DNA of 64,000 nt from an uncultured Gemmatimonadota bacterium (GTDB lineage Bacteria; JAAXHH01): assembly GCA_951812955.1 (NCBI GenBank), contig OX638340.1:2656001-2720000 (forward strand). The letters are read 5' to 3'. The position numbers and the translations under genes were made by a program. This document shows positions 15,579-62,730 of the stretch, piece by piece. Within the stretch, counting starts at the first letter, position 1; the number at the start of each line of letters is the position of its first letter. Below the pieces are notes generated by a model. That model was not told the origin of the DNA. It saw nothing but the letters and a program-made list of their open reading frames with translations, and searched no databases.

Positions 15579-15600
15579 ACCACGGCTGTGATCCCCTGCA
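15380..15600. repeat. Direct repeat copy A (~220 bp) containing the 67-bp core ccctacccaggtgggtattcctatcgtgcatttcgattcgaacctcggagaactttacgttcatttc
   Basis: Identical 67-mer found at 15408-15474 and again at ~17005-17071. The flanks are ~75% similar, with 1-nt indels. Confidence 0.85.
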
Positions 15601-15683
15601 TTTACTAACCTGTGTTTTCCGTATTTAAAAGCATTATATCATGTTTTTGACTTTATGATGGAGACTTCGGAAAGTATTCCCTT

Positions 15684-16781: not shown

Positions 16782-16939
16782 CAGAATTCCAGCCGCCTAG
16801 ATGTAGCCGAATAACGAGCACGCTTACTACATCAGTGTTCGAGAGGAATAACCAGTAATGAGTTACAGGTTTATGATATGGCGGTGCCAATTACACAGAA
16901 CTACAGACTCAAACAACGGCGCTGAGATCACCGTTCGCC

Positions 16940-17200
16940 CTTACTGTGGTCGTTGGAATTCGTAGATCTCCTTCGACCGTACCCAGGCGGTTATTCACCC
17001 TACCCAGGTGGGTATTCCTATCGTGCATTTCGATTCGAACCTCGGAGAACTTTACGTTCATTTCTGTCCGTAGCCCTTGAAATCGTCCCTCAAAGTCCCG
17101 ATGTCTTCCCTCAGAGCGTTTGTCGAACGCCCCAGGAAGGTGGGGATCGCCACGACCAGCACGCCGACAGCAGTGATTCCTTGTATGAATATGCCGAGTG
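16940..17200. repeat. Direct repeat copy B (~260 bp) with the same 67-bp core and an internal 21-bp tandem duplication (ccctacccaggcggttattca / ccctacccaggtgggtattcc)
   Basis: Read directly from the sequence. The minus-strand reading frame is shifted relative to copy A by single-nucleotide indels. Confidence 0.85.
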
Positions 17201-17311
17201 ATTCCATGACCAGGATGTGTGGATGAGAGTTTAGGAATTATGACACACTAACTATATCAGTGTGAGAAGTCCTGGAAATCTTGGTGGTTTTTTAATTTTT
17301 AAAAAAGGACC

Positions 17312-18658: not shown

Positions 18659-18988
18659 TACGGGCTCCCGGGGTCCTTTGATACGTCCGATCCTGGTCTG
18701 TATTCTCTGTGCTAAATCTTTTGTATCTATGTGACTTACAACGCGATAAAAAGTCCGTAGAGCATACACTTCCGCATGGCCGGCGTCAAGCATTTTTTGA
18801 TTGACTTGGACCGGAGGAAAGGGATAGATTCATCCCGGTTCCGCATTCGAAAAACACGGGAGGGAAACCGTCCCGAGGTACGGATTCTTCCATCCTGAAC
18901 GAATGTAAGAACAGTTTTTCGGAACGTCCGCGTTTCGAGGACCTGTTCGGCTGTTGTTCACCCTACCTGCGTGGAGGATCCGAGCCAC

Positions 18989-23761: not shown

Positions 23762-24650
23762 ATGGCTGATGACTCTACCACGACTGCTATACCACCAAAA
23801 CAACCGGATACGAGTAGTTCGATTGCAATTAAGTGGCTTCATTCCAAGCTTGTGGAGATTGAAGACCATACATGCATGGATGCGTTAACGATATTTGGTC
23901 CCATAACGGAAACAGTAGATCATCGAGTCAGGTTGGCGATCGAGAGTTTACCGAATCACCGCAACGGCTTGTTGGTCATTATCGATACACCCGGTGGAAT
24001 TGTAGAGGTAGCCGAACGTATTGTAACCACTATCAGGCATTACTACAAAGAGGTCAAGTTTCTCATACCTGATAAAGCGATGTCAGCAGGTACGGTTCTG
24101 GTGATGTCTGGAGATGCGATATTGATGGATCACTTTTCTTGTTTAGGCCCAGTTGATCCACAGTTGTATATCGAAGGCAAACCAATCCCGACGTCTGTCC
24201 TTTCTTATCTTGAACAATATGAACGATTTGTTCAAAAATCCATGGAAGGTACCTTGACGAGTGCTGATTTGGTTCTGCTTCAAAAGCTTGACGCTGCTGA
24301 CTTACGACAGTACGAACTGGCGGCCGAGTTATCTGTGCGCCCGTGATTGGCTTGTTCGGTATAAATTCAAGGATTGGTCCAAGCACAGTTCCACAGGGAA
24401 CACGGTTTCAAAAGAGGAAAAAACAATCCGTGCCGAAGAAGTTGCGAGAGCGCTTAATGATCAGGAAAGATGGGGTACCCATGGAAGGGGAATAAACCGA
24501 GAAGTTCTTGTCAAATTAAAGCTCAAGATTGATAATTTGGAATCCGATACTGAATTAAGTAGTCTAACAAAAGAGTATTTCTGGTTTTTTAGAGACTTAG
24601 CATTCAAAGAGGAGTCGCAAAGTCTTGTACACAACCGGTTATTCATCTGA
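23762..24650 (+). pseudogene. SDH/S49-type Clp-fold serine protease, disrupted by a -1 frameshift near 24325-24335 (N-terminal part 23762-24346; C-terminal part continues in the +1 frame to 24650); low-GC island 1
   Basis: The N-terminal frame has IIDTPGGIVEVAERIVTTIR...AMSAGTVLVMSGDAILMDHFSCLGPVDPQ (oxyanion and Ser nucleophile context of ClpP/SppA-class proteases). The second frame (SYLCARDWLVRYKFKDW...GTHGRGINREVL) aligns to the C-terminus of the intact paralog at 35429-36433 (VKSWLESYMFKGM...KSHSRHIPREEL). Confidence 0.55.
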
Positions 24651-25015: not shown

Positions 25016-26065
25016 TCATCCACTCCTCACCCACTCCAGATCGAACCGGACCAACTTGATCGTCTCGTAGGGATGATCTTCTCCCCGTTCATAGAGGCAG
25101 GCGACGGTACCGTCTGGAAGCACGGCGAGGGATGAATAGGCGGACGGCCCGGGATGCAGCACCTTTTCACGTGGCCAGGATCCGCCGGCTTCATCGGAAA
25201 GTCTCACGGTCAGGTTACACCGCTCGTCCCGGCTGGCCGGATTCGAGAACAGCAGGCGGTCGCCCGCGCCGGGATACCGGACGAGGGCCGCCTGGCAGAT
25301 CGGTTCGATCAGCGTTTCGTCGTGGCGCTGGTTACGCCACGTCATCCCGCCGTCTCCGCTGACGGCGAACTGCCTGGTGCGCAAGGCCCGGTCGTAATTT
25401 CGCATGTTGAGCAGGACGTCGCCGTTTTCCAGCTCGGTGACGCAGCATTCGTTGACCTGGTCTTGCAAAGTCGTGCCGCCCATCCGCCAGGTTTCCCCAT
25501 GGTCTTCGCTGTATATGACATGAGAATAGTAGCGTTTGGTGCTTGCCTCTATGTGGTCGCAGGGTATCAGCATCCGGCCCGACGATAGCTGAATTCCGTT
25601 GCCCGGTCCGGTGGCGTACCACGTCCAGTCCGCGCGCTTCGCGGTGGAGGTGATATCCCGCGGTTCGCGCCACGTGCGGCCGTCGTCTTCGCTGGCCGTG
25701 ACCCAGACGGTCCGTGAGCCCTGGCTCGTCCCCTCGATGATCTCGGATTCGCGGTCGATCCCCATGTTGTGGGTCATGAGCAGCCATACTTTCCCGGTCT
25801 CGCCGTCTACCACCGGACAGGGATTGCCGCAGGTATTCCCTGCGTCCGCCCAGACCAGCTCCTGGTCCGACCAGGTGCGCCCGCCGTCTTCGCTCCGCTT
25901 CACCAGCATGTCGATATCGCCGGTGTCGCTTCGGCTGCTCCTCCGGCCTTCGCAGAAGGCGAGGACCGTACCCCGGGTTGTCGCGATGATCGCTGGAATG
26001 CGGTAGGTATCGTAACCTTCCGTGCCGCTGGTCCAGATATCGGATTGTTTACAGGAGCCGCTCAT
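25016..26065 (-). CDS. Exo-alpha-sialidase (GH33, BNR/Asp-box repeat)
   Basis: YRIPAI (sialidase RIP motif) plus four Asp-boxes: SEDGGRTW, SEDDGRTW, SEDHGETW and SGDGGMTW. Confidence 0.85.
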   Translation of the reverse strand: MSGSCKQSDIWTSGTEGYDTYRIPAIIATTRGTVLAFCEGRRSSRSDTGDIDMLVKRSEDGGRTWSDQELVWADAGNTCGNPCPVVDGETGKVWLLMTHNMGIDRESEIIEGTSQGSRTVWVTASEDDGRTWREPRDITSTAKRADWTWYATGPGNGIQLSSGRMLIPCDHIEASTKRYYSHVIYSEDHGETWRMGGTTLQDQVNECCVTELENGDVLLNMRNYDRALRTRQFAVSGDGGMTWRNQRHDETLIEPICQAALVRYPGAGDRLLFSNPASRDERCNLTVRLSDEAGGSWPREKVLHPGPSAYSSLAVLPDGTVACLYERGEDHPYETIKLVRFDLEWVRSG

Positions 26066-26164: not shown

Positions 26165-28120
26165 TCAGTTGAATATGATGTGCCCCGTTATGCCCGTCAA
26201 TCCATCTATGATGACCCATAGGCCTGCGCTGACGAACTCGCCGAGAATCAGCCCCAGGAAGAAGGGCAGCATCTTCCGATAGATGTCGATCCCACCGTAC
26301 TTGAGGATGAGTCCCTTGATCATCCAGGCGAGGAATATGGAAAACCACGCGGTGAGGAGCGGGGCGGAGGCGCCAACGGGAAATCCGATGAAATGGAGGG
26401 GCCACCAGATGAACTTCTGCCTCACGTACATAAGCGCCCACATGATGGTAGCGCCCAGACCGAAGAAGAACCATCGCCCGGCGGGTTCGGACGTGGAGGT
26501 GATGGTGGTCGCATAGTAGCTGAACCGGTTCTGCTGAAGCTCTCCGAAGAACTGCCAGTTGAGGTTGATGCCGCCGTGTTCATAGGCCAGGTACATGACC
26601 GTGTAGATCGAGCTGGCCAGGCTGCACAGGATGGCCAGGCCGATGGCCGCGGTGAGCCAGCGCTGGTTCCGGATCTTCGCCGTATCGGCCAGTTTCAGGC
26701 CGTTGACCATTGAGGGCATGATGAGCGTTCGGGTGTGGGTGAACCAGAACTTGGTCAATCCGATGGCCACCAGGTTGCGCGCGCCGACGAAGGGGCCGGT
26801 GAATCCGTGGATCATGAACTCCTGGGGATTGAAGGTCTCCGCGAAGATCACGCCCCCTTCCGCCACGATCCGCGCGAAGCCGACGTAGACCGCGAGTACC
26901 AGGATCAGCAGAATGATGGCCAGCCAGGCGGAGAGGCCGATCATCCATAGCCAACCGAGCAGGAACAGGACGCCCAGTCCCCCGCCGATCACGGCGAAAC
27001 GGTAGGAAAGGCATTCGTTGGAGTCGTCCGGCTCGCCGCCTCCGCGGAACGCCTTGCCCAGGATCTCGCGGATATGCGCCCGGGCCAGCCAGAGACTGAA
27101 CAGGGCGAGGACCATCAGCGCGCCGAACATCTGGTATTCACCCGGCAAGGTGGTACTGCCCGCCAGGTCCACGCCGAAGCTCGCGTTTACCAGGTTTTGC
27201 AATCGCCCGATGAGAAAGAAGAGCCACAGGCTGAATGAAATCTCGAGACTGAGCAGATAGGCGAAGCCCACCAGCGGGAACGACAGGTTGATGGGCAGCA
27301 CCAGCTGGTTGTTGAAGAGCCCGATGGTCTCCTGGAAGTAAATTGTCGGGAAAAAGTAGATATAGTTGTGTACGGCGTTCCAGGCGTTGATCAGGAAGGG
27401 AATGGCGAACCCCGCCCACATGATCCGGTTCCGGAAGAACGACGCAAGGCGGGAACTCGACCCATCCTCTCCCGGATCGATCATCTCGGCGGGCAGCTTG
27501 ACCAGGGGGAAGACGAGACGTTCCCGTTCCACCCATTGCTTGCGCAGGATTACGGTGATGCAGAACACCACGAAATATAGCACCAGGACGAAACTCAGCC
27601 AGGCGGCCAGGGGTACGGCCCATTCGCCCCAGGGGATGCTCCCGCCCCGGGGCAGGCCTTCGAAGAACGATCGCACCGCCTCGGAGTCCTGGGGCATCAG
27701 CCAGGGCTCGACATGGGGCCCCACGGTCTCGAGCCAGCGGTTCTCCGGCGTGGCGTAGTACATGGAGGCCATGGCCGGCAGGAGGACCTCGGTCAGGCCG
27801 TAAGACGGGATGGCCGACGCGATGAGCGACATGATGTAGACGACGGCCAGTTCGCCCTGCGTGAGCGCGTGGCCCGGCGACCAGGTCCGCAGCAGCGTGT
27901 TCACGATTCCGACGAGGACGGCAAAGAGGAAGACCACGCCGATTGGGGTGAAGTTGCTGCCCAGGTACGATCCCTGGATGATCATATTGGAATAGGGATC
28001 GGCGATACCCAGGATCAACGAGCAGGCCATCCCCACGGCCACGGCGCGAGGGGTGACCATCTCCCTCGGCGTAGATACGTGATGTTCATCCCGGGATGTA
28101 ACTGGACGGGGGACCGACAT
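26165..28120 (-). CDS. Large polytopic membrane protein of unknown function (651 aa); paralog 1 of 3
   Basis: At least 12 predicted TM helices. Shares length and conserved blocks (TPRAVA..., ATPEN(R/Q)W, YYWGLP, PIPW, ERL(V/S)(F/Y)PL) with 42952-44907 and 44998-46953. Lies immediately upstream of the sialidase gene. Confidence 0.65.
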   Translation of the reverse strand: MSVPRPVTSRDEHHVSTPREMVTPRAVAVGMACSLILGIADPYSNMIIQGSYLGSNFTPIGVVFLFAVLVGIVNTLLRTWSPGHALTQGELAVVYIMSLIASAIPSYGLTEVLLPAMASMYYATPENRWLETVGPHVEPWLMPQDSEAVRSFFEGLPRGGSIPWGEWAVPLAAWLSFVLVLYFVVFCITVILRKQWVERERLVFPLVKLPAEMIDPGEDGSSSRLASFFRNRIMWAGFAIPFLINAWNAVHNYIYFFPTIYFQETIGLFNNQLVLPINLSFPLVGFAYLLSLEISFSLWLFFLIGRLQNLVNASFGVDLAGSTTLPGEYQMFGALMVLALFSLWLARAHIREILGKAFRGGGEPDDSNECLSYRFAVIGGGLGVLFLLGWLWMIGLSAWLAIILLILVLAVYVGFARIVAEGGVIFAETFNPQEFMIHGFTGPFVGARNLVAIGLTKFWFTHTRTLIMPSMVNGLKLADTAKIRNQRWLTAAIGLAILCSLASSIYTVMYLAYEHGGINLNWQFFGELQQNRFSYYATTITSTSEPAGRWFFFGLGATIMWALMYVRQKFIWWPLHFIGFPVGASAPLLTAWFSIFLAWMIKGLILKYGGIDIYRKMLPFFLGLILGEFVSAGLWVIIDGLTGITGHIIFN

Positions 28121-33966: not shown

Positions 33967-34199
33967 GGGATGCTCCGAAGGGAGTTTGCTTCCGCCCCTG
34001 CCGTGGTTCGTGAAGGGCGGCGAAGACGACGGGAATGTATGCACGCGGGGCCATATCGTCAATCGAATTGAAAGCAGCGCCAGCCGCGCGAAAGCAGCGC
34101 CAGCCGCGCCCGGGCCCAGTCGCGCGCGCCCGGGAAGAACATGGCTTTCCGCCGGCGGTAGTCGTTGACAGAAAGGCGGAATATCGCTAGGATAAAGCC

Positions 34200-35428: not shown

Positions 35429-36433
35429 TTGCCAATCTGGAGCGAAATCCTTAAAGAGTTGACACCGACACAAAATGGACTTCCAGTTGATTTTGATGGC
35501 GTTCGAAGGAAATATCTACTGAAACTCCATCAGCACACGGAACGGAATGTAATTCTGTACGCCTCAGGATGGCTTCAAGGGGAAGCCCCTCCTGCGCTTG
35601 TTTCAATAAATGATGAAGACATACAGGCGTTCATGGAAGTTAGTCACGGTCTACATGGAGATCAGCTCGATCTGATCCTACATAGCCCCGGAGGTTTTCC
35701 CGAAGCAGCCGAAGCGATCGTTGCGTATCTGAGGTCTCGATTTTCTCATATAAGAGTAATTGTTCCACAACTCGCAATGTCGGCAGCAACTATGATAGCA
35801 TGTGCTGCCGATAAGATCGTGTTAGGCAAGCATTCATTTCTCGGTCCTACTGATCCTCAGATAATGCTGGCAACCCCTCTAGGTGTGCGTTCAGTACCGG
35901 CTCAGTCTGTCCTGGATCAGTTTGATCGGGCCAAGAAGGAATGTTCCGACCCAGCCAAATTGTCGGCTTGGTTACCGATGTTAAGTCAATATGGTCCGGA
36001 TTTACTGGTTCAATGTGAGACCGCGTTAGAAATGTCTAAAGTGCTAGTGAAGTCTTGGTTGGAATCGTACATGTTTAAAGGGATGGATGATCGTAAATCA
36101 AGGGCGGAAAACGTCTCGACGTGGCTCGCTGATCACATGGAGTTCAAAAGCCACAGTCGACACATACCACGCGAAGAACTTGAAGACCACCAGTTGTCGA
36201 TATCTAGGTTGGAAGAAGATACGATATTGCAGGACATGAGCCTTTCAGTGTTTCATGCAACTACTCATACCTTTTCCGGCACCCCCGCTGTAAAGATCGT
36301 CGAGAACCATACAGGTCGTGCATTCATAAAACAAAATGTTACTCAACCGGTGCAGGTTGCCATGCAGCCAGTCCAGTCGATAGAAGTTGCACCAGTACCA
36401 CTAGTAATGCCCGAACATAGTGCCGATAGTTGA
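35429..36433 (+). CDS. SDH/S49-type Clp-fold serine protease (intact, 334 aa)
   Basis: LILHSPGGFPEAAEAIVAYLRSRF...LAMSAATMIACAADKIVLGKHSFLGPTDPQ has the ClpP/SppA-class catalytic Ser context. Low GC. Inserted between the PCuAC and SCO1 genes. Confidence 0.65.
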   Translation: MPIWSEILKELTPTQNGLPVDFDGVRRKYLLKLHQHTERNVILYASGWLQGEAPPALVSINDEDIQAFMEVSHGLHGDQLDLILHSPGGFPEAAEAIVAYLRSRFSHIRVIVPQLAMSAATMIACAADKIVLGKHSFLGPTDPQIMLATPLGVRSVPAQSVLDQFDRAKKECSDPAKLSAWLPMLSQYGPDLLVQCETALEMSKVLVKSWLESYMFKGMDDRKSRAENVSTWLADHMEFKSHSRHIPREELEDHQLSISRLEEDTILQDMSLSVFHATTHTFSGTPAVKIVENHTGRAFIKQNVTQPVQVAMQPVQSIEVAPVPLVMPEHSADS

Positions 36434-37142: not shown

Positions 37143-39545
37143 CTAATGCTCGCGCCGCAGCGCGTCCACCGGGTTCATCGTGGCGGCCTGAAGGGTCTGG
37201 GTACTCACCGTGATCCAGGCGATGAGCAGTCCGAGCAGGCCCGCGGCGGGGAACAACAGCAGCGAGATCTCGGTGTGATAGGCGTACTGCCGAAGCCACT
37301 GCTGCGTGACGAAGTAGGCCGCTGGCCAGGCGATGACGTTCGCAATTACCACGAGGATGGTGTATTCCCTTGAAAGTAGCAAGACGAGTTGCCGCGCCGA
37401 CGCGCCCAGGGCCTTCCGGATTCCCACCTCCCTGGTGCGCTGTTTCGCCGTGAAGACCGCAAGGCCGAACAGTCCGAGGCACGCCGTAAAGACCGCCAGC
37501 CCGGCAAACATGGTGACGAGCCGTCCCAGCAACTGATCCGAACGATACAGGCGTTCCACGTCCTGGTCGAGGAACGAATATACGAAGGGGATATCCGGCG
37601 TGGACGCCTTCCACATGGCTTCCAGGTCCCTCAAGGTTCCGCCGGGATCGCCGGGAACGAACCGCACGGCCCAGTAGCCGGAACCCCCGAAGGTGAAGAT
37701 TACCGGATCGATCCGCTCGTGGAGGCTCCTGAGGTGGAAGTCGCCCACCACCCCGACGACCTGCATCTCGCTGTTCCCCATTTTTACGAACTGATCCATG
37801 GCTTCTTCGGGCGATCCCCATCCCAGTCGACGGACCGCCTCCTCGTTCAGGAGACTTCCGGTCGATCTCCCCCATCCTCCTCCATCTGGGTCCTCGACCC
37901 ATTCGAAATCTCTTTCAAAGGATATGTCGCGTCCGACAAGCGACTCGAGCCCGAGCGTCCGTACAAGACCGCCCTCGGTATGGATGTGTTGCATCTCGAC
38001 CGTCCCCGCCGCCGGGTCGTCTACGCGGCCCACGGGCAGGATCGGCAGTCTCCCCCGGCCGGCCGCTCGTCCGGGCATGTAGTTCGCCCCGGCAACGCTG
38101 ACTACCCCGGCGTGCTGTGGGTAACGATCACGGATCATGTCGAAGTCCATGCCCTCGAGGTCGGGCAGGATCACCACGTGTTCCTTCTCGAATCCCAGGT
38201 GTTTCTCCCGCATGTACTCCAGCTGCTGGTAGACGGTTCCCGTGCCGAACATCAGCAGGATGGCCAGGGAGAATTGCATGACCACGAGGGCTTTTCGCAG
38301 GGTTGCGGCGCCGGTACCCGAAAGTCCGCGAAAGATCGCAACGGGACTGATCCGGGACAGCAGCAGGGCGGGGTAGGCGCCGGCGAGGACGCCCGCCGTG
38401 AGGATAATAGCCGTGCCGCCCAGAATTGACCACGGTTCGAGCGAAGGCATGGAAAGTACGTGGCCCGTCATGGACCGGAAGAGGGGCAGGACCACCCAGA
38501 CAGCGGCCAGGGCGACGAGGAACGCCACGGCACTCAGGAGTATGGTTTCACCCAGGAACTGGCGGCCGATCTGGCTTCTGGTGGCTCCTGAGACTTTGCG
38601 CATGCCGATTTCCCGGGCCCGGGAGATGGACCGGACAATCGCCAGATTCGTGAAATTCATGCAGGCAATCAGCAGGATGAAGACCGCGATGGCGATCAGC
38701 ATCCAGATGAAAGACACTTCGCCGTTTGCCTCCATCTCCAATTCCAGTTGAGAATGCAGATGGATATCGAAAAGCGGCTGCAATTCATAGGTGTGGGTAA
38801 AGGCCGTCGCCCGGACCGATGCGTCGACATGTTCCGTGAGCCGTGTCTGCAGCAGGTTGCCTATCTGTTCGGGCGAGACGCCGAGCGGCAGGAGCAGGTA
38901 GGTGTAGTACGCGCTGTTCGCCCAGTTTCTCAAAAGACCGATAGGATCGCCGCGTCCGGTCGTCGTGGCGATGGAGACGTAGAAATCGGGATGATAGTGG
39001 GCGTAAGGCGGTGGGTCTTCCATGATGGCGGTGATCGTGAAGGGAAACAGGTGGTCACCGGTGATCGTCTTGCCGATCGGGTCGGCGTCCCCGAAATACT
39101 TGCGGGCCATGGATGCGCTGATGACCATCGTATTCGGCGCCGTGAGCGCGGAGGAAGGGTTGCCGCGCACCAGGGAGACATCGAAGACTTCGAAGAGGTT
39201 GCCATCCGCCCAGTAGACCCGTTGCTCATAGAACTGCTTGTCTTCGGTGGTGAAAAGCCAGGTCCCCACGGTCGCCCGAAGGCGGAGCACTTGCTCCACT
39301 TCGGGAAGCTGCGTACCGATGAAGTCGCCCAGAATGCCGGGCGTCCGCGCCGTGCGATCCGTGACGACCCGGTATATACGGTCGCCGCGGGAGTTGTGCC
39401 GGTCGTAGCTCAACTCGTCGCGGATGTACAGCAGGATGACCAGGCAGCAGGCCATGCCGATGGCGAACCCGATGACGTTGATCGCGGCGTGGGACCTGGA
39501 CGAGAGTACGTTCCGCCAGGCGGTTAGGAGGTAGTGTCCGATCAT
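37143..39545 (-). CDS. ABC transporter permease, MacB/FtsX-type, 800 aa; paralog 4 of 4
   Basis: MIGHYLLTAWRNVLSSRSHAAINVIGFAIGMACCLVILLYIRDELSYDRHNSRGDRIYRVV... and a C-terminal ...ATMNPVDALRREH. Same architecture as the + strand paralogs. Confidence 0.85.
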   Translation of the reverse strand: MIGHYLLTAWRNVLSSRSHAAINVIGFAIGMACCLVILLYIRDELSYDRHNSRGDRIYRVVTDRTARTPGILGDFIGTQLPEVEQVLRLRATVGTWLFTTEDKQFYEQRVYWADGNLFEVFDVSLVRGNPSSALTAPNTMVISASMARKYFGDADPIGKTITGDHLFPFTITAIMEDPPPYAHYHPDFYVSIATTTGRGDPIGLLRNWANSAYYTYLLLPLGVSPEQIGNLLQTRLTEHVDASVRATAFTHTYELQPLFDIHLHSQLELEMEANGEVSFIWMLIAIAVFILLIACMNFTNLAIVRSISRAREIGMRKVSGATRSQIGRQFLGETILLSAVAFLVALAAVWVVLPLFRSMTGHVLSMPSLEPWSILGGTAIILTAGVLAGAYPALLLSRISPVAIFRGLSGTGAATLRKALVVMQFSLAILLMFGTGTVYQQLEYMREKHLGFEKEHVVILPDLEGMDFDMIRDRYPQHAGVVSVAGANYMPGRAAGRGRLPILPVGRVDDPAAGTVEMQHIHTEGGLVRTLGLESLVGRDISFERDFEWVEDPDGGGWGRSTGSLLNEEAVRRLGWGSPEEAMDQFVKMGNSEMQVVGVVGDFHLRSLHERIDPVIFTFGGSGYWAVRFVPGDPGGTLRDLEAMWKASTPDIPFVYSFLDQDVERLYRSDQLLGRLVTMFAGLAVFTACLGLFGLAVFTAKQRTREVGIRKALGASARQLVLLLSREYTILVVIANVIAWPAAYFVTQQWLRQYAYHTEISLLLFPAAGLLGLLIAWITVSTQTLQAATMNPVDALRREH

Positions 39546-39671: not shown

Positions 39672-40778
39672 TTAAGGCGCCAGCCTGTTCCAGTGGACGT
39701 CCATGGCCGTTTCGGTACCCGCGTAGTACACCACCAGGACCGTGCCGTCGGGCAGGGCTTCCGCATAGGGCAGGCCGAAGGACCACACCGAGAAGCCCAG
39801 GGCGCCCTTGGGATCTTCCTTAGGCGCCTCGTGGGTATACAGGGTCACCTCGGTTTCCGGATCGAACGTCCCGTCGATGGAAGGCGCGACGCGGGCCTTG
39901 ATGGACTGGTCGTGGAAGCGGTCCACCCACGGCAGGACGATGCGTCCGTCCGGCAGCACCGCGGGATGGGCCGCCTGGTCGGTGACGCCGATGTCTTCCG
40001 GCGCGGACCAGGTTCGCCCGCCGTCGGAGCTGACGCGGCGGTGAATGTTCAGGTAGGATTCCGTTTCGGTGTTGTAGGTCCAGGCGAACGCACCGATTCT
40101 GCCGTCCGGCGCCACGGCCGACCGCAGATCCCAGTTGTAGATCAGGCCCGTCGGATCGAACCCGATGTTCACCGGTTCACCCCAGGTCCTTCCCCCGTCC
40201 GTGGAGTGAAATGCGACGACCCGCTGGTACCATTTCGAGGTGTCGAGGTAGTGCTTGTTGGTTTCGATGGTCATGACCAGGGCGCCGTCCGGAAGTTGCA
40301 TGATTGGATTGGTCAGGCTCGCCGGTCCAATCTCCTCCGGCATGGGTACCTCGCGCCACGCCGTCCAGGTTTTTCCCCCGTCCGCGGAGTCCGCCAGGAG
40401 GATGGACATGGGCACGCAGCCCTCGGTCTCCGGATTGAAGAGTCCCGGGGCGTCAGGATAGGTTTCGCGGTCGATCCACATTGATGCGGCGATGATCCGT
40501 CCGGGCGCCAGTTCAGTCAGGTAGACGATCTTGACCGTCCCCCGGACTCCGTGAAGCGTTGGGCTTCCGAAGGGGCGTTCGGGTGCGCTCCAGGTCTTTC
40601 CGAGATCGGAGGAGCGGCTGAGTTCCACCACTTCGTCCGCGCAGTCCTTCGTCGTGCCGCTGTGCCAGGTGGCGATCAGCGTGCCGTCGGTCTTGCTAAG
40701 GACTGAGGGGAACGTGAGATTGGCCCGGTCCGTGCCGGGCGTGCTGCGGCTGAGGACGCCGGAGTCGACGATGCGCAT
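39672..40778 (-). CDS. BNR/Asp-box repeat glycoside hydrolase, sialidase-like
   Basis: Asp-boxes SSDLGKTW, SADGGKTW, STDGGRTW and SSDGGRTW. No obvious RIP motif, so sialidase specificity is uncertain. Confidence 0.75.
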   Translation of the reverse strand: MRIVDSGVLSRSTPGTDRANLTFPSVLSKTDGTLIATWHSGTTKDCADEVVELSRSSDLGKTWSAPERPFGSPTLHGVRGTVKIVYLTELAPGRIIAASMWIDRETYPDAPGLFNPETEGCVPMSILLADSADGGKTWTAWREVPMPEEIGPASLTNPIMQLPDGALVMTIETNKHYLDTSKWYQRVVAFHSTDGGRTWGEPVNIGFDPTGLIYNWDLRSAVAPDGRIGAFAWTYNTETESYLNIHRRVSSDGGRTWSAPEDIGVTDQAAHPAVLPDGRIVLPWVDRFHDQSIKARVAPSIDGTFDPETEVTLYTHEAPKEDPKGALGFSVWSFGLPYAEALPDGTVLVVYYAGTETAMDVHWNRLAP

Positions 40779-40891
40779 GGTGGCTGGCCTTTCGAGATTG
40801 GTTGTTAAACCTTTTTCAGTTCGGATGTGCCTTCACGATTCGGATGTGCCTTCCATGTTCGGATCCGGCAAGGATCCAATCCGGGTACCGA

Positions 40892-42883
40892 TCAGACCCG
40901 TTTGATCCCCTCGCACAGATCGATCATGGCGGAGAGGATGGATTCCGCCAGGCAGTCGATGGCTTCCCGTGTTCCCGCGATGTCTACCGAGGCCGCCGAA
41001 ACGTAGCACTTGACCGTGGGTTCGGTGCCCGACGGTCGCACGATGACCCGCGTATGTCCGGACTCAGAAAAGGTGAAGACCAGGATATCCGCGCGATCGC
41101 CGTCAACGGGCGTAGTCGTTCCCGTTCGCAGATCCTGCGCCTGGCCGCTCTGCCGGTCGATCACGCGGCAAACGGCGCGTCCGCCTATCCGCTCGGGAGG
41201 CGCTTCACGCAGCGCGGCCATCATGCCTTCGATCCTCCGTGTGCCCTCCGCGCCGGGCAGCGCGACCGACCGCTGGACTTCCCTGAAATATCCGTACGTT
41301 CGGTAGATATCGTCCAGTTCATCGCGCAGGGTGCGGTTGTCCTTCTTCGCCAGGGCGGCGAACTCGGCGAGCAGGATGCCGGTGGCAGCCTCCTTGTCCC
41401 GTATCCGGGCGTCGGCCAGATAGCCGTGGCTTTCCTCGGTACCGAACACGAAGGACATATCCGGCGGCAAGCCTTCGATCGCCGCGCCAACGTGTTTGAA
41501 ACCGATGGGCAGGTCGTCGATGACCTCCAGTCTGAAGGACCGGGCGATGATCGAGGCAAGGTCCGAGGTGACCAGCGTCTTGCAGAACAGACCCCTAGGG
41601 GGCAGCGTACCCGCCGCTTGCTTCCGGCTGAGTATGTAGTGGCAGAGGAGGACGCCGATCTGGTGACCGTTTAAACTCAGTTCTTCCGGCGGAGCTTCCC
41701 ATCCCCTGTCCGGCAGCGGCAGCGCGCACCCGATCCGGTCGGCGTCGGGGTCGCTCGCGAGCACGAGGTCCGCGCCGACTTCCGCGGCTTTTCTGAAGCC
41801 CAATTGAAAGGCCGCCGGTTTTTCGGGGTTTGCGATCCCATGGTCCAGCGTGGAGAACGCACCGTCCGGGACGACCTGCTCATCCACGTAGTGCACGTCC
41901 TCATAACCCAGCTTATCCAGTGCCGCGGCCACCGAGGTCATGCCCACGCCGTGCAGTGGGGTATACACCACACGCACGTCTCGGCCATCGGCCAGCGACA
42001 GGTCCGACAGGACGCCGATATACCCCTCGTCCAGGTCCCTGCCGATGATCCGGATCAGGCCGTTTCGGAGGCCTTCTTCGTAGTCGATCCGCCTGATCTC
42101 ACCGGCCTGCCTCATCTCTCTCGTGATGTCCCCGTCCCGGGGCGCCACCACCTGCCCCCCGTCGGGTCCGTAAACCTTGAATCCGTTGTCTTCGGGTGGA
42201 TTGTGGCTCGCGCTGATCATCACACCGGCCGCCGCCCGGAGTTCGCGGACGGCGAAGGAAAGCGCGGGGGTGGAGCGAAAACCGTCGAAGATCAGGACGT
42301 CTATGCCGTTGGCGGCCAGCACGCCGGCCGTCTCTTTCGCAAACAACTCCGAATTGCGCCGGGTGTCCCATGCCACGACGACGCCGCGCGCCCCAGCGGG
42401 ACCGCGGTGATTTTCACTAACTTGCCCATCACCGCCTTGCCCATCGCCCTCGAGCCCTGCACCGACACGTTCCCCGTCGCCATCGTCGCCCTGCCCATCG
42501 CCGCCTCGCCCATCACCTTCGCGCTCTGCACCGACGCGATCCCTGTCGCGCTCTGCACCCTCGCGATCCCCATCGCCTCTCCCCATCATCCCGGTGACAT
42601 ACCTGGCCAGTCCCTGTGCCGCCAGGCCCACGGTGTGGGTGTTGAGCCGGTTCGGCCCCGGTCCCATCCGACCTCGGATGCCGCCCGTTCCAAAGGAGAG
42701 GACCGAACCGAATGCGTCCTCCAGTTCGTCGGTGCCGCCGGCATCGATGAGGGCATGGATCTCATCCCGGTACGCCGCGAGGCCGGGCTCCGTAGACCAT
42801 AGTACCAGGGCATCCGAGGCCGCACGGGACAGGATGCCGTTTTCGGTCCAGGCGTTGATCCTGCTGACGCGTTGTTGATTCAT
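40892..42883 (-). CDS. Phosphoglucomutase/phosphomannomutase (alpha-D-phosphohexomutase family), with a ~55-aa Gly/Asp/Arg/Glu-rich low-complexity insertion
   Basis: Phosphoserine loop SASHNPPEDNGFKV. Metal loop ASDPDADR. Sugar-binding GTEESHG. Preferred start is the ATG at 42883 (MNQQRV...); the track start at 43198 is an over-extension. Confidence 0.85.
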   Translation of the reverse strand: MNQQRVSRINAWTENGILSRAASDALVLWSTEPGLAAYRDEIHALIDAGGTDELEDAFGSVLSFGTGGIRGRMGPGPNRLNTHTVGLAAQGLARYVTGMMGRGDGDREGAERDRDRVGAEREGDGRGGDGQGDDGDGERVGAGLEGDGQGGDGQVSENHRGPAGARGVVVAWDTRRNSELFAKETAGVLAANGIDVLIFDGFRSTPALSFAVRELRAAAGVMISASHNPPEDNGFKVYGPDGGQVVAPRDGDITREMRQAGEIRRIDYEEGLRNGLIRIIGRDLDEGYIGVLSDLSLADGRDVRVVYTPLHGVGMTSVAAALDKLGYEDVHYVDEQVVPDGAFSTLDHGIANPEKPAAFQLGFRKAAEVGADLVLASDPDADRIGCALPLPDRGWEAPPEELSLNGHQIGVLLCHYILSRKQAAGTLPPRGLFCKTLVTSDLASIIARSFRLEVIDDLPIGFKHVGAAIEGLPPDMSFVFGTEESHGYLADARIRDKEAATGILLAEFAALAKKDNRTLRDELDDIYRTYGYFREVQRSVALPGAEGTRRIEGMMAALREAPPERIGGRAVCRVIDRQSGQAQDLRTGTTTPVDGDRADILVFTFSESGHTRVIVRPSGTEPTVKCYVSAASVDIAGTREAIDCLAESILSAMIDLCEGIKRV
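42410..42600. repeat. Imperfect in-frame repeats inside the phosphohexomutase gene (encode RGDGDREGAERDRDRVGAEREGDGRGGDGQGDDGDGERVGAGLEGDGQGGDGQ)
   Basis: The plus-strand sequence shows repeated ctgcccatcgcc / ctgcaccgac / cgcgctctgcacc blocks. The translated insertion sits between the conserved N-terminal helix and the VVVAWDTRRNS segment. Confidence 0.6.
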
Positions 42884-42951: not shown

Positions 42952-44907
42952 TTAGAAGAACTGGAGTTCGTGTATTGACCCTCGAAAATACCAGAAGTCC
43001 ACCAGGATCGCAACGGCGGCGCCGAGGACATAGCCTACCATGATGCCGATCATCAGCGGCTGGACAGCCTGGTAGAGGCGTACACCGCCTACCCTGATCA
43101 GTATGGTTTTCAACAGCCAGGCCAGAAAGACGGGAAAGAATGCGTTGCGCGCGGGACCGCCGGCGGCCACCACGAAACCGATAGGCGAAATGGGCCACCA
43201 GCTGAAGTAATAGCGGGCAACGCTCATACCCGTGACCATGGCCATGCCCACGACCAGGAAGAACACCTCCGCACCCGAAATGGTGGTACTGTTCTGCATC
43301 CAGGTTATGATCAAGTTATAGAAACCGGGGTCTCCGGCGATATTGTTGTAGTAATTCGCCGCACCGCCCAGCCGGTATCCGGAATAGGCCGAAAAACCGA
43401 TGGCCGTAATCGAGCTGACGACGAAGGTGACCGATGCCCAGAAGAACAGGACCCGTCCGGAGACGCCGAGTATGGACTGCATCCGCGCGACGTGGGAGGG
43501 GATGATCATCGTAAAGGTCTTCCAGTTGCGTGCAAAAGCGCTTCCCAAGCCCAGGGCCGTCAGGTTCTGCGGCGACAGTGAGGCGGAGCCCAGCATGCCC
43601 ACAGTAAACTGGTGGGCGTTGATGGGCAGGTCCAGGAAGACCAGCCCCGATTCCGCCATCACGCGGCACAGTGCGAAGTAGAAGAGGAAAAGCAGGACGA
43701 GAAAGACGGCGATCACCGGGAAGGACATGCCGATCACGTGCAGCCACCAGGAGATATAGGCCATGCCGCAGACGCCCGTGACCAGGGCCGCCCGGTAGGA
43801 AATGAACTCGTCTTCGTCGCGCAGGTTCGTTTCGTGTCCCCGTACGTGGCGCCACACCATCGCCAGGTGCCGCCGCGCGATCCAGAAACCCCAGAGCGCG
43901 AAGGCGATCATGCCCCCGATGAACTGCACGGCGACCAGTCCGCCCGGTATGGCCGTACCCGAGGCTGCGACAACGCCGACCCGGGCCAGGATGCCCTGCT
44001 GTAGCGTATTGATGATCTGGAACAGCCACACGCTGAAAAGGATATCCACGTTGATGAAGTAGGAGAAGGCAAAGGTGAGGACGTTCATTCGGATTGGATG
44101 CGCCGGAAAAGCATGTCCGAAATTAACGCTGAGCACGGTGCTCGCGTCGACGGGAAAGGACGACCACTGGGTCCAGTATGATGCGGTGTTCCAGAGCATG
44201 ATGGAGAAGGTGACCACCGCGCCGGTGATGAACATGCGGTTTCGCATGATCGTCGGCAGGACGGCGTCCGGCTCATCCTTCGTTTCCGTCATGACGACCG
44301 GCGCCTGGACGAGGGGATAGGAAAGCCGCTCGTGCTCGACCCACTGCCTGCGCATCAGGATGACGAAGCAGATGCCCACGGCCAGGAGGCCGCCAAAGAA
44401 AGACAGCCACCAGAACGACGGAATGATCCAGGCCGCCCAGGGGATCGGCATGCTTTCTGGTAGGCCCCAGTAATAGTCCCGGTTCGCGTTCTGTTCGTTC
44501 GTGACGATGAGCCAGTCGGGCAGATAGGCGAAGAACATCTCGCGCCACTGGTTCTCGGGCGACGCGAAGTATTCCGCCGTGGCCATCACGTTCACGACGT
44601 AGTTGGACATGCCCCAGGTCGGCACCATGAAACCGACCCAGCCAAGTACGAAAACGAAGAGTACTTCTTTGTCCCGCAATCCCAATGACGGACGGATCGC
44701 CTTGACCAGCAGGTTGGGACCCAGGACACCCAGCAGGAAGGGAATCAGCAGGGCGAGATCTATGTGGGCGAAGGTAAGGTGCACATACCCCAGGTGGTAG
44801 TTGCTCGACACGGAGAAAAGATTGACGACGACGGCCAGGGCCAGGCCCGCCGCCACCGCCCGGGGCGTTACCACCTTCGAGGAGGTTCTTTGTTCCAGTT
44901 CGCTCAT
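42952..44907 (-). CDS. Large polytopic membrane protein of unknown function (651 aa); paralog 2 of 3
   Basis: Same length and conserved blocks as 44998-46953 (about 85% nt identity over long stretches) and 26165-28120. Confidence 0.65.
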   Translation of the reverse strand: MSELEQRTSSKVVTPRAVAAGLALAVVVNLFSVSSNYHLGYVHLTFAHIDLALLIPFLLGVLGPNLLVKAIRPSLGLRDKEVLFVFVLGWVGFMVPTWGMSNYVVNVMATAEYFASPENQWREMFFAYLPDWLIVTNEQNANRDYYWGLPESMPIPWAAWIIPSFWWLSFFGGLLAVGICFVILMRRQWVEHERLSYPLVQAPVVMTETKDEPDAVLPTIMRNRMFITGAVVTFSIMLWNTASYWTQWSSFPVDASTVLSVNFGHAFPAHPIRMNVLTFAFSYFINVDILFSVWLFQIINTLQQGILARVGVVAASGTAIPGGLVAVQFIGGMIAFALWGFWIARRHLAMVWRHVRGHETNLRDEDEFISYRAALVTGVCGMAYISWWLHVIGMSFPVIAVFLVLLFLFYFALCRVMAESGLVFLDLPINAHQFTVGMLGSASLSPQNLTALGLGSAFARNWKTFTMIIPSHVARMQSILGVSGRVLFFWASVTFVVSSITAIGFSAYSGYRLGGAANYYNNIAGDPGFYNLIITWMQNSTTISGAEVFFLVVGMAMVTGMSVARYYFSWWPISPIGFVVAAGGPARNAFFPVFLAWLLKTILIRVGGVRLYQAVQPLMIGIMVGYVLGAAVAILVDFWYFRGSIHELQFF

Positions 44908-44997: not shown

Positions 44998-46953
44998 TCA
45001 AAAGGAATGGGGATTATGAACGGCTCCGGGAAAATACAGCAGATCGGCCAGGATAGCAATGGAAGCGCCAAGGACGTAGCCCACGAGGATGCCGATCATC
45101 AACGGCTGAACGGCATGGTATAGCCGCACGCCGCCTGCCCTGATCAGGATGGTTTTCAACAGCCAGGCGAGAAGGACCGGGAAGAAGGCGTTGCGGGGCG
45201 GACCGCCGGCCGCTACCACGAAGCCGATGGGTGAAATGGGCCACCAACTGAAGTAGTAACGGCATACAGTCATTCCCAGGACCATCGCCATGCCCGCGAT
45301 CAGAAAGAACACCTCGGAACCGGAAATCGTCGTGTTGTTCTTCATCCAGCTGATGATCAGGTCGTAGAATCCGGGGTTACCTGCGATATCAGCGTAGAAG
45401 TTCGACGCGCCGCCGAGCCGGTATCCGGAATAGGCTGTGAAGCCTACGGCGGAAATCGCGCTGAGGGAGAAGGCGACGGCGCTCCAGAAGAACAGTGTGC
45501 GCCCTTCGACGCCAATCACCGATCTCAGCCGCGCGACGTGGGACGGTATGATCATGGGAAAGGTCTTCCAGTTGCGCGCGAAAGCGCTTCCCAGGCCCAA
45601 CGCCGACAGGTTCCGGGGTGAAAGCGAAGCGGAGCCCAGCATGGCGACGGTAAACTGGTGGGCGTTAACGGGAAGGTCCAGGAAGACCAGTCCGGATTCC
45701 GCCATTACGCGGCAGAAGGCGAAGTAGAATAGGAACAGCACCGTCAGAAACGCGGCGATCACCGGAAAGGACATGCCCACGGCGTGCAACCACCACACGA
45801 TGTAGGCCATGCCGCACGCCCCGGTGATCACGGCCGTCCGGTAGGAGAAGAACTCGTCCTCGTCACGCAGGTTCGTGGCGCCTCCCAGCACATGGCGCCA
45901 CACAGTCCCCAGGTGCCGCCGCGCGATCCAGATCCCCCAGAGCGCGAAGGCGATCATCCCGCCGATGAACTGGACTGTGACCAGCCCTCCAGGTACGGCG
46001 GTTCCTGAATCTGCGATGATGCCGAGCCGGGCCAGGACGCCTTGCTCCAGCGTGTTGATGATCTGGAAGAGCCATACGCTGAACAGGATGTCCACGTTGA
46101 TGAAGTAGGAGAATGCGAAGGTAAGGACGTTCATGCGAATGATTTGAACCGGGAAGGCGCGGCCGATCTCGATATTGATCAGGAACTTCGTATCGATGGG
46201 AAAGGACGTCCATTGCGTCCAGTATGACACCGTGTTCCAGAGCATGAGGGAAAACGTGATGATAGCGCCGGTGATGAACAGCCGGTTGCGCATGATCGAC
46301 GGCAGGACCGAATCCGTTTCGTCGTCCGCATCCGTCATGACGACCGCCGTCTGCGCGAGGGGATAGGAAAGGCGCTCGTGCTCGGCCCATTGCCGGCGCA
46401 TCAGGACGACATAGCAGAGGCCGACGGCTAGCAGGCCGGCGAAAAAGGAAAACCACCAGAACACGGGAATGATCCACGCCGCCCAGGGAATCGGAGCGCC
46501 GGCAGGAAGACCCCAGTAGTAGTCCCGGTTCGCGTTCTGTTCGTTCCTGATAATTACCCAGTCCGGGAGAAAGGGGAAAATCAGTTCGCGCCACTGGTTC
46601 TCGGGCGTGGCGTAGTATTCCGCCGTGGCCATCATGCCGACCAGGTAGTTCGACATGCCATAGGTGGGTACCATGAAACCGATCCAGCCCAGGACGAAGA
46701 CGAACAGGAGTTCCTTGTTTCGCAGTCCCCACGACGGATTAATCGCCTTGACCAGGATATTGGGGCCAAGTACGCCCAGGAAGAAAGGGATCAGCAGGCC
46801 GAGGTCGATATGGGCGAAGGTGAGATGGGTAAACCCGACGAGATAACTGGTCGACACCGACAGGATGTTGACCGCGACGGCCAGCGCCAGACCCATGATT
46901 ATGGCCCGGGGGGTCGCTGCGCGCGGGCTGGACGGGTCGACCGTATCGGTCAT
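44998..46953 (-). CDS. Large polytopic membrane protein of unknown function (651 aa); paralog 3 of 3
   Basis: A tandem duplicate of the downstream gene. Its start overlaps the stop of the M32 carboxypeptidase gene (ATGA). Confidence 0.65.
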   Translation of the reverse strand: MTDTVDPSSPRAATPRAIIMGLALAVAVNILSVSTSYLVGFTHLTFAHIDLGLLIPFFLGVLGPNILVKAINPSWGLRNKELLFVFVLGWIGFMVPTYGMSNYLVGMMATAEYYATPENQWRELIFPFLPDWVIIRNEQNANRDYYWGLPAGAPIPWAAWIIPVFWWFSFFAGLLAVGLCYVVLMRRQWAEHERLSYPLAQTAVVMTDADDETDSVLPSIMRNRLFITGAIITFSLMLWNTVSYWTQWTSFPIDTKFLINIEIGRAFPVQIIRMNVLTFAFSYFINVDILFSVWLFQIINTLEQGVLARLGIIADSGTAVPGGLVTVQFIGGMIAFALWGIWIARRHLGTVWRHVLGGATNLRDEDEFFSYRTAVITGACGMAYIVWWLHAVGMSFPVIAAFLTVLFLFYFAFCRVMAESGLVFLDLPVNAHQFTVAMLGSASLSPRNLSALGLGSAFARNWKTFPMIIPSHVARLRSVIGVEGRTLFFWSAVAFSLSAISAVGFTAYSGYRLGGASNFYADIAGNPGFYDLIISWMKNNTTISGSEVFFLIAGMAMVLGMTVCRYYFSWWPISPIGFVVAAGGPPRNAFFPVLLAWLLKTILIRAGGVRLYHAVQPLMIGILVGYVLGASIAILADLLYFPGAVHNPHSF

Positions 46954-48523: not shown

Positions 48524-49819
48524 CTAGTTGCCCAGGACCGGTTGGACGCGCAATTCAAGCAGGCCATGGGCCCTTCGAAGCACTTGTTCCACCTGGCCGG
48601 GTTGATCTCCTCGTGCGAATATGAAACCGGGGTAACTGGCGCCTTCGGGAAGCGGAGTCAGCAGGTCGCCTTCCTTTGCGGTGATTACCACGTCTTCCAC
48701 GCCCGGAACCTTCTTCGCCGTTTCGACACCGTCGTATCGCAGAAACTGTCCGCTTTCCGGAACGGGCAGCATCATCACGCCCGCGGCCTTCGTCTGCCCG
48801 GTACTTCGCCCGAAGTCCGTCGCGTCGAGACCTGTACCGCTCGTGTCCTGTCCCAGGGCGTGACGCAGGATGAGTTCCTCCAGGGACAGCCCGATTCCGA
48901 ACTCCAGGACGCGCGAGCAAAGCCCCCCGATGGATCGGCCGGCGATTTCAATGATCCTGGCCTCGCCGTGGTGGATGCGCAGTTCGGCGTGGACCGGACT
49001 CTCCGACAGGCCCACGGCCGTGGAAGCCCTTTGTACGGCTTCGGCTACGACCTTTTGCGTCTTGCCGGGCAAGCGCGAAGGCGTTATGTAAATCGACTCC
49101 TCGAAATAGGGCCCCTCCAGCGGATCGGGCTTGTCGAACAGCGCGAGCACGCGCAGCAGTCCGCCGGTCAGTAATCCCTCCAGGGCTACCTCTGCGCCTG
49201 GTATGTAGGATTCCACCATGATGCGTCGGGCGTCGGGATCGAGGCTCGGCGGCCTGTCCGTCGCGCTGTCGAGTAGGTGGCTGATTCTCCGGAATGCTTC
49301 TATAAAGCCTGATGGCGAGTCGGCCCGTATTACGCCCCGGCTGCCCGATAGCAGGACGGGTTTGAGCACACAGGGGTAAGGTTGCTCCAGCGCGATTTCC
49401 TCGACCGGGACCGACAGGTCGAACAGGGCGAAATACGGGTTCCATACCCCCGCGGACGAGAGCATTTCACGCATGCGGTACTTGTTGCGCGCGGCGACGG
49501 CCGCTTCGGGCGTGTTGTGCGGAAGGTCGAGGATCTGACATGCCCTGGCGGCGATCTCGGTGGTATAATCGTCGACTGGTACGATGGCATCGAGGGTATG
49601 ATCACGGGCGTAGGCCACGATTTCCTCCACGGCCTGCGACACGTATCTCAGCCGAAGCGACAGCGGGACGTCCCAAGCTTCCGCCAGCACGTGGCAGAAG
49701 TCCGAACCCACGACGACTTCAATGCCCATACGCCGCGCCGCAGCCAGAAACGGATCCGCGCGATAGGTCGTCGTCGGCATCAGGAGCAGTAGTTTTTTGG
49801 ACCGGGTCTCTGCTGGCAT
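48524..49819 (-). CDS. ATP-grasp-domain protein (carboxylate-amine ligase family)
   Basis: Central PYPCVLKPVLLSGSRGVIRA...MVESYIPGAEVALEGLL...HAELRIHHGEARIIEIAGR has the ATP-grasp B and C subdomain pattern. Substrate unknown. Confidence 0.65.
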   Translation of the reverse strand: MPAETRSKKLLLLMPTTTYRADPFLAAARRMGIEVVVGSDFCHVLAEAWDVPLSLRLRYVSQAVEEIVAYARDHTLDAIVPVDDYTTEIAARACQILDLPHNTPEAAVAARNKYRMREMLSSAGVWNPYFALFDLSVPVEEIALEQPYPCVLKPVLLSGSRGVIRADSPSGFIEAFRRISHLLDSATDRPPSLDPDARRIMVESYIPGAEVALEGLLTGGLLRVLALFDKPDPLEGPYFEESIYITPSRLPGKTQKVVAEAVQRASTAVGLSESPVHAELRIHHGEARIIEIAGRSIGGLCSRVLEFGIGLSLEELILRHALGQDTSGTGLDATDFGRSTGQTKAAGVMMLPVPESGQFLRYDGVETAKKVPGVEDVVITAKEGDLLTPLPEGASYPGFIFARGDQPGQVEQVLRRAHGLLELRVQPVLGN

Positions 49820-62515: not shown

Positions 62516-62730
62516 AGGTCGGGAGACCGGGATAGCCGGCGTTTCCCATGGCACGCACGGCCGGTACGATCGGCAGGCATGGCACGCACGTCCCGCAGGC
62601 ACGGCAGGCACGCGTGGCAGGCAGGCACGACACCCACGGCAACGGCACGCACGGCCGGTCGGCACGTGGTCACGGACCGCCGTATTTCAAGCTGTCATCA
62701 AACCATTGGCATCTTCAGGTAGCTGTCATT

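Follow-up and report, generated by a model that had tools for sequence, protein, structure and literature searches.

Why does the gene of an old housekeeping enzyme carry a long, repetitive stretch of glycine, aspartate, arginine and glutamate codons within its first domain? This question is raised by a phospho-sugar mutase gene in 64,000 nucleotides (nt) of DNA from an uncultured Gemmatimonadota bacterium (contig OX638340.1, positions 2,656,001 to 2,720,000; GenBank assembly GCA_951812955.1). In the following this whole stretch is called the window, and all coordinates refer to it. We consider it likely that the insertion is an in-frame coding minisatellite, i.e. a low-complexity expansion in a permissive surface loop, which originates from slippage on G-rich repeats and is nearly neutral. 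The elements concerned are listed below, with protein positions in amino acids (aa).

40892–42883, minus strand: phospho-sugar mutase gene (alpha-D-phosphohexomutase superfamily), 663 aa including the insertion; from open reading frame translation, Pfam, fold and the start of the orthologues
42383–42595, minus strand: hypervariable loop, aa 97–167 of domain I, from helix 82–101 to strand 168–172, 71 aa here; from anchor-to-anchor comparison of 120 homologues
42404–42583, minus strand: low-complexity Gly/Asp/Arg/Glu core of the insertion, aa 101–160; coding strand strongly G-rich (GC skew -0.46 on the plus strand)
42518–42571, minus strand: two tandem 27-nt units, encoding GDREGAERD and RDRVGAERE; Tandem Repeats Finder (TRF) period 27, 1.9 copies, 92% match, and codon layout
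42488–42517, minus strand: two tandem 15-nt units (GGY GAT GGG CRR GGC), encoding GDGRG and GDGQG; motif matches at 42488–42502 and 42503–42517, TRF period 15
42419–42448, minus strand: second 15-nt pair, encoding GDGQG/GDGQV, in the distal copy of the 69-nt duplication; motif match at 42434–42448 and codon layout
42423–42560, minus strand: 69-nt (23-codon) segmental tandem duplication with copies at 42423–42491 and 42492–42560, 80% identity; from repeat search

The original prediction had placed an in-frame repetitive insertion at 42410–42600, ahead of the VVVAWDTR strand. The peptide quoted there is exactly present and the boundaries were essentially right. The whole loop (aa 97–167) is delimited by the motifs GLARYV and VVVAWDTR, and 52 of its 71 residues are Gly, Asp, Arg or Glu, with a net charge of -8. 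The two 27-nt units read GGG GAT CGC GAG GGT GCA GAG CGC GAC and AGG GAT CGC GTC GGT GCA GAG CGC GAA, with the peptide consensus DR[EV]GA[EG]R[DE]G. The 15-nt unit has the general form GGY GAT GGG CRR GKY, encodes GDG[RQ]G/V and occurs four times in the insertion. Imperfect DNA repeats had been anticipated and are real. Their supposed length of about 50–60 nt holds only approximately: the units measure 15, 27 and 69 nt, and the estimate corresponds to offsets of 54 and 69 nt. A weaker 54-nt self-offset is also present.

This repeat structure exceeds what is expected from chance or composition. The best in-frame self-offset of the insertion gave 65% identity at 69 nt, compared to at most 59% among 2000 codon shuffles, so that 0/2000 reached the observed value. 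The 15-mer motif was observed 3 times in the insertion for 0.21 expected occurrences, and with one mismatch allowed no copy was found elsewhere in the 64-kb window. Among the relatives compared, the 69-nt duplication occurs only in this genome. All units (15, 27 and 69 nt) are multiples of three and internal to the coding sequence. A phase-variable contingency locus was rejected on these grounds, as neither the frame nor a promoter spacing would be switched.

Repetitive G-rich DNA is prone to errors, such that the insertion might be an assembly or sequencing artefact. Likewise, the gene might be a pseudogene or start downstream of the insertion. We give these explanations hardly any weight. 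The exact mutase protein of the window is on record from a 3.81-Mb contig, and homologous insertions, always in frame, are present in dozens of independent assemblies. Because several alleles lie on contigs of 2–4 Mb with names that suggest long-read assemblies (ptg000768l, ctg125736_636x_l, ctg17301_75x_c), an assembly artefact is very unlikely as judged from the assembled sequences.

The gene itself appears intact. The reading frame starts with ATG at 42883 and stops at 40892–40894, and the start methionine has the same position in 55 orthologues. W12, the motif FGTGGIRG and the following helix are all located N-terminal of the insertion and are invariant in a 56-sequence alignment, in agreement with the earlier claim that conserved N-terminal residues precede the insertion and make a downstream start unlikely. 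The protein matched all four Pfam domains, PGM_PMM_I to IV, above their cut-offs, where the match to domain I begins only after the insertion, at profile position 38. The catalytic loops SASHNP (42197–42214, aa 224–229), DPDADR (41735–41752), GTEESHG (41423–41443) and RPSGTEP (41018–41038) are intact, and these motifs are invariant in the same alignment. For the AlphaFold2 model of the protein, the top Foldseek matches were solved phosphoglucomutases with a probability of 1.00. No NCBIfam equivalog (pgm, glmM, PMM/PGM, CpsG) was reached; the best, Arch_GlmM, scored 123 bits against a cut-off of 439, and the others were also far below. The sequence therefore supports an assignment as 'phospho-sugar mutase' only, with no specific substrate class.

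If the insertion originates from repeat turnover, its length should vary by whole units among relatives. Thousands of homologues were retrieved from 5.8 billion proteins, and the best 120 of them were aligned. We compared a closer clade set (n = 85, roughly 65–94% identity) with an outgroup set (n = 34, below about 64% identity). All members of the clade are metagenome-assembled genomes of uncultured bacteria, labelled by their submitters as Gemmatimonadetes/Gemmatimonadota, Latescibacterota or Zixibacteria. With 87% identity, 'Gemmatimonadetes bacterium APA_bin_41' is the closest representative of a species; an isolate name hints at a possible sponge association. An alignment with orthologues had been proposed as a check of the insertion. 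It returned a loop of 71 aa here compared to typically 12 aa in the distant orthologues, in which GLARYV through VVVAWDTR mostly spans 25–26 residues and only 5 distinct lengths occur. In the clade, where all 85 orthologues are full length, the loop has a median length of 35 aa and a range of 7–81 aa, and 41 different lengths occur from anchor to anchor. These loops contain 30% Gly, 13% Asp and 12% Arg. Their net charge ranges from -9 to +7 and is negative in 60 of the 85. A repeated 4-mer is present in 44 of the 85 loops (16.9 expected), with units that differ by sublineage, such as GDGQG, DGPVP and GDRAGKLNPRL. Two low-GC relatives have loops rich in Lys, Asn and Ser instead, which suggests, at n = 2 only, that loop composition may follow genome composition. 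Across the clade no correlation was found between loop composition and whole-protein GC-type composition (rho 0.02).

At the DNA level we compared seven orthologous loci and the window codon by codon, i.e. eight alleles. Between conserved flanks, the alleles differ by whole units gained or lost. The 27-nt unit is absent in one relative (L086), present twice in the window, L082 and L084, and present three times in L083 and L085, and for the 15-nt unit the copy number lies between about 1 and at least 5. Relative to L089 the window mutase has a 13-aa insertion, and relative to L087 insertions of 38 and 10 aa. In one allele (L081/P0010) the entire loop is removed by a clean in-frame deletion, the junction of which shares only GGC (microhomology). 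Its remaining loop is shorter than the ancestral one, and a second independent record (P0123) exists. This allele (GCA_001753005.1, LXNJ01005280.1, 405–2204; found in two assemblies) is 94% identical outside the loop and lacks the insertion together with part of the ancestral loop (GLARYVTWMMGRGVVVAWDTR). In functional tests it would be of use as a natural control.

At a synonymous divergence of about 0.15–0.27, several insertions or deletions (indels) have accumulated in the 180-nt loop and none in the other approximately 1780 nt of the mutase gene. The ratio of nonsynonymous to synonymous substitution rates (dN/dS) was 0.41–0.71 in the alignable loop codons compared to 0.18–0.31 in the rest of the gene. 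In these codons the constraint on the loop is relaxed, with no sign of positive selection.

A discrete insertion in a conserved gene that differs between strains could also be a mobile or programmed element, namely an intein, the target of a diversity-generating retroelement, or a dispersed repeat element inserted in frame, as Rickettsia palindromic elements are. We find this extremely improbable. No intein, Hint or LAGLIDADG Pfam match was obtained, and splice-junction residues are missing: the insertion begins with GRGDGD and ends with HRGPAGARG, i.e. without a Cys/Ser start and a His-Asn end. A repeat search of the insertion found no inverted repeats or hairpins. The unit motif is confined to the insertion within the window, and a metagenome-wide exact scan for the 27-nt unit returned one unrelated chance match, in a chemotaxis-receptor-like open reading frame beside a phosphate transporter. 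A retroelement target would vary by adenine-specific substitution at fixed length, whereas here length and unit copy number vary. A second motif copy is absent from the window, for which no search aimed at a reverse transcriptase was made. In addition, the repeat of a second gene, described below, copies that gene's own native strand sequence.

How can the enzyme accommodate such a loop? Computed from the 56-sequence alignment of the clade, the AlphaFold2 model gave for aa 103–165 a predicted local distance difference test score (pLDDT) of about 28–30 (below 50 throughout) and no secondary structure according to DSSP. The segment contains at most 2 hydrophobic residues (VILMFWYC) per 25-residue window. 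The insertion is thus predicted to be an intrinsically disordered loop between helix and strand. When the insertion is deleted, the mutase sequence aligns straight through the junction to the solved structures 1tuo and 2z0f, in which the loop has a few residues. The insertion enters at the N-terminal end of a beta-strand in an alpha/beta domain, while the loop with the catalytic serine comes after strand 219–223, at its C-terminal end. Because the two are at opposite strand ends, the usual topology of the fold would put the insertion on the face opposite the active site.

The original prediction had linked the insertion to a repeat in the ndh gene of the same window and proposed that this genome produces in-frame expansions of repeats in its housekeeping enzymes, or tolerates them. 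Comparing further genes bore this out. The loops concerned are:

7431–7619, plus strand: hypervariable loop of the NDH-2 gene (coding sequence 6654–8066); from TRF, translation and anchor-to-anchor comparison
7500–7619, plus strand: five 24-nt units of NDH-2, encoding DCEGHVEV (twice), DRGGRVET, DRGAHVEV and DRGGRVVV
48779–48850, minus strand: variable loop of an ATP-grasp (LAL_C2-type) enzyme (coding sequence 48524–49819), 24 aa here; from orthologue comparison

In NDH-2 the last unit, DRGGRVVV, is the native strand of the enzyme, and the periodicity of the repeat was reached by 0 of 2000 codon shuffles. The region from VLWAAGV through NEDLSIPG measures 36–89 aa in the clade, with repeats of the DRGGRVET and GQH types; most outgroup sequences have 36 aa here and a few have 34. 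The loop of the ATP-grasp enzyme, including its LILRHALG anchor, measures 20–90 aa in 51 clade sequences compared to 21–33 aa (median 22) in 70 outgroup sequences. Its repeats in other clade members include GRAQS, GGTDR and GGGNEAA, and the relative L089 has a smaller tandem indel in this gene (an extra TKAAGE, twice). When about 28 genes of the window were set against the orthologues of two relatives, only the mutase and NDH-2 genes showed large internal indels; about 25 other genes had none of at least 3 aa, or only small ones. The neighbouring genes DUF6785, BNR_2 and MacB have identical lengths across relatives. The repeat instability is therefore site-specific yet recurrent in the lineage. 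Between the insert lengths of the mutase and the ATP-grasp enzyme in 15 genomes, paired by the length of their contigs, the rank correlation was not significant (Spearman rho 0.34, p = 0.22).

A composition scan of the window's open reading frames for segments rich in Gly, Asp, Arg and Glu or poor in hydrophobic residues returned, among real genes, only the mutase insertion, native E2 linkers and the ATP-grasp loop. E2 linkers are usually expected to be rich in Ala and Pro. Here the inter-domain linker of the 2-oxoacid dehydrogenase E2 component (gene 17312–18793, linker 18194–18433, minus strand) is G/D-rich (GGDGDPGDGGGATGG...). By sequence composition, flexible segments of this genome thus appear to resemble the insertion.

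The insertions of the mutase and ndh genes are also the two most G-run-skewed 180-nt stretches of the window. In both the coding strand is G-rich and contains G-quadruplex-type motifs, and the mutase insertion has the most extreme score of the window (G4Hunter -0.98; motifs at 42425–42457 and 42558–42592 on the coding strand). This skew fits structure-prone DNA that promotes slippage, and is equally explained by the Gly, Asp and Arg codons. The same features, together with a long stop-free antisense frame, might mean that the G-rich repeat acts as nucleic acid, as a G-quadruplex or a regulatory structured RNA, or hosts an antisense gene, with the peptide being incidental. The probability of this appears very small to us. 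The RNA was predicted to fold no better than shuffled sequences (z = -0.11), no promoter-like sites were found in the insertion, and the sequence is unconserved, with the region wholly missing in one allele. An Rfam scan of the window returned two tRNAs only. G+C-rich genes often have stop-free frames on the opposite strand, and a candidate antisense gene at 41804–42802 (plus strand) was rejected because its frame is broken in L086.

From these observations the following course of events can be proposed. Short G-rich units, the 15-nt unit encoding GDG[RQ]G and the 27-nt unit, would misalign during replication or recombine unequally. Units would thereby be gained, lost and re-duplicated, in the present genome including the 69-nt block. 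Since every unit is a multiple of three, the reading frame would be preserved and the enzyme would survive. The product would be a glycine-rich, net-acidic, disordered loop at the N-terminal end of the strand, opposite the catalytic loops. Being disordered and remote from the catalytic cleft, it would be tolerated and drift almost neutrally. The same process would act throughout the clade on one loop each in at least two more cytoplasmic enzymes of the window, NDH-2 and the ATP-grasp ligase-like protein. As two other enzymes of the window behave alike clade-wide, we regard the phenomenon as a property of the lineage, due to a mutational propensity, weak selection against inserts, or both.

Alternatively, the loop may be a selected functional module that keeps its composition and length class while its sequence drifts. 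It might serve as an entropic bristle or enhance solubility, bind divalent cations, act as a tag for interaction or localisation, or drive condensates. Several observations point in this direction and at the same time weigh against nearly neutral slippage. Over about 35% protein divergence, nearly all of the approximately 85 clade members keep an insertion of some kind at this site, with a consistent Gly, Asp and Arg content and a predominantly negative net charge. Given the bacterial deletion bias, this persistence might be due to selection in favour of a loop that is long, acidic and flexible. The dN/dS of the loop stays below 1, to which a bias of the aligner may contribute, and the genome's own E2 linker has a similar G/D-rich composition. 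The slippage explanation is further limited by the moderate overall confidence of the mutase model (mean pLDDT 69.5), and slippage, a G-quadruplex contribution, the surface exposure of the loop away from the active site and neutrality for enzyme function are steps that we infer. Furthermore, the ATP-grasp gene was picked on a hint, such that '3 of about 50 genes' is a biased rate, obtained within this one clade.

On balance we nevertheless think a selected module unlikely. A loop that serves a common purpose would hardly range from 7 to 81 aa and from -9 to +7 in charge, be built of different units in different sublineages, and be missing together with part of the ancestral loop in one allele that is on record twice. 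The Lys/Asn/Ser-rich loops of the low-GC relatives (n = 2) suggest that composition tracks the genome, and no Pfam match to any binding repeat was obtained. The localisation or interaction tag that had been suggested finds no support either: sequence and length are unconserved, a loop-less allele exists and constraint is relaxed. Calcium-binding repeats of the RTX (GGxGxDxUx) or DxDxDG type were rejected as well: no HemolysinCabind or other repeat family matched at E <=0.01, and the conserved hydrophobic position of such repeats is missing from the units. Finally, the same behaviour is seen in three unrelated cytoplasmic enzymes, for which a mutational cause fits better than a common function. 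Nearly neutral in-frame expansion thus remains the explanation that we favour.

Around the mutase gene, the order DUF6785 (twice), mutase, BNR_2 and MacB is kept in relatives. The window holds three paralogous 651-aa membrane proteins of this kind (DUF6785 + DUF6784) at 26165–28120, 42952–44907 and 44998–46953, all on the minus strand, and BNR_2 (sialidase-like beta-propeller) genes at 25016–26065 and 39672–40778 adjoin two of the DUF6785 loci. The spacer between the mutase stop and the start of the downstream BNR_2 gene contains a 19-nt tandem repeat of 2.7 copies at 40815–40864 (TTCACGTTCGGATGTGCC). Four paralogous ABC permeases of the MacB_PCD/FtsX type, of about 790–800 aa, are encoded at 495–2882, 4204–6567 and 8066–10456 (plus strand) and at 37143–39545 (minus strand); two of these genes directly flank the NDH-2 gene.

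Elsewhere in the window, an imperfect G/C-rich tandem array (GGCACGCAC..., TRF periods 9–31, no Rfam match) occupies the intergenic positions 62547–62666 between the convergent genes 60587–62515 (plus strand) and 62698–63978 (minus strand). A perfect tandem duplication of 20 nt (two copies, 34070–34109, GAAAGCAGCGCCAGCCGCGC), the length of which is not a multiple of three, apparently lies just upstream of the true start of a major facilitator superfamily (MFS) transporter. Open reading frames with a low third-position G+C content (0.43–0.46 compared to about 0.75 elsewhere) were found at approximately 15370–17250, at 23762–24346 and at 35429–36433. The first block includes an EcKL/APH-type kinase-like gene (15684–16781) and lies between the genes for nitrile hydratase alpha and the E2 acyltransferase. 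Since these two genes are adjacent in the relative L090 and third-position G+C is low, the block may be a recent insertion.

Is this kind of sequence evolution new? In coding repeats with variable copy number and contingency loci of bacterial surface proteins, the intragenic copy number varies between strains through slipped-strand mispairing. The mutase differs from these in that its units, as multiples of three, provide no on/off switching of the frame, that it is neither a surface nor a secreted protein, and that no antigenic or adhesive link is evident. Conserved signature indels are of constant length, and their sequence is conserved as well. Like these, the mutase insertion is clade-specific, has a fixed position in a conserved loop and may serve as a lineage marker, and unlike these it is hypervariable in length and sequence. 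A further parallel is Plasmodium, where inserts also interrupt conserved housekeeping proteins. The low-complexity or amino-acid-repeat inserts of Plasmodium falciparum are lineage-wide, hydrophilic, loop-forming or disordered, and spread by unequal crossover or slippage; their composition is tied to genome base composition and their function is debated and possibly absent (PMC3749963). Unlike there, we find a bacterium with G+C-rich DNA, inserts rich in Gly, Asp, Arg and Glu rather than Asn and Lys, units of 15–27 nt rather than mostly trinucleotide runs, and three genes in 64 kb.

In prokaryotes, the lengthening and shortening of low-complexity regions by slippage are widespread and dynamic and can locally and transiently affect ancestral functions (Persi, Wolf, Karamycheva, Makarova & Koonin 2023, PMC10120016). 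The mutase loop resembles these regions in its short in-frame repeats turned over by slippage and in its compositionally biased, probably disordered sequence. Such regions are mostly transient and enriched in young, fast-evolving families (PMC10120016), whereas the hot spot in the mutase persists in an old housekeeping enzyme over a clade of roughly 65–94% identity and has counterparts in two further enzymes. Amino-acid tandem repeats of Borg extrachromosomal elements are rapidly evolving and in frame, have independent origins, and form disordered regions in homologous proteins, where their hot spots are conserved (Schoelmerich et al. 2023, PMC9879509). They are perfect, A-enriched, recent and enriched in extracellular or membrane proteins (PMC9879509); the repeats described here are imperfect, G-rich, chromosomal and located in cytoplasmic metabolic enzymes.

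The insertion is therefore a new example of an already known type of sequence evolution, with no sign of a new functional module. Less usual are the type of target, an old cytoplasmic housekeeping enzyme, the clade-wide persistence of the hot spot with ongoing turnover, and the occurrence of two more such enzymes within 64 kb. One may speculate, with doubts prevailing, that the lineage is a bacterial counterpart of Plasmodium, in which a lineage-specific mutational regime gives many cytoplasmic enzymes long-lived, hypervariable, disordered inserts rich in Gly, Asp and Arg at fixed hot spots. Such a regime could result, for example, from G-quadruplex-prone repeats combined with an altered repair or helicase repertoire, or from a small effective population size, and the inserts may be retained as beneficial flexible acidic loops.

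In practical terms, loops of this kind disrupt matches to domain models and inflate apparent divergence, and they can be mistaken for assembly errors or be collapsed by short-read assemblers. They could also be used as high-resolution strain markers. In the three enzymes concerned, dozens of natural length variants of the respective loop, which carry between 0 and about 70 additional residues, constitute a natural experiment on the tolerance of disorder and on neutrality. For the organism, a genome-wide propensity for such inserts would suggest that the regime of replication or repair, or else the population genetics, is unusual in this poorly known uncultured lineage.

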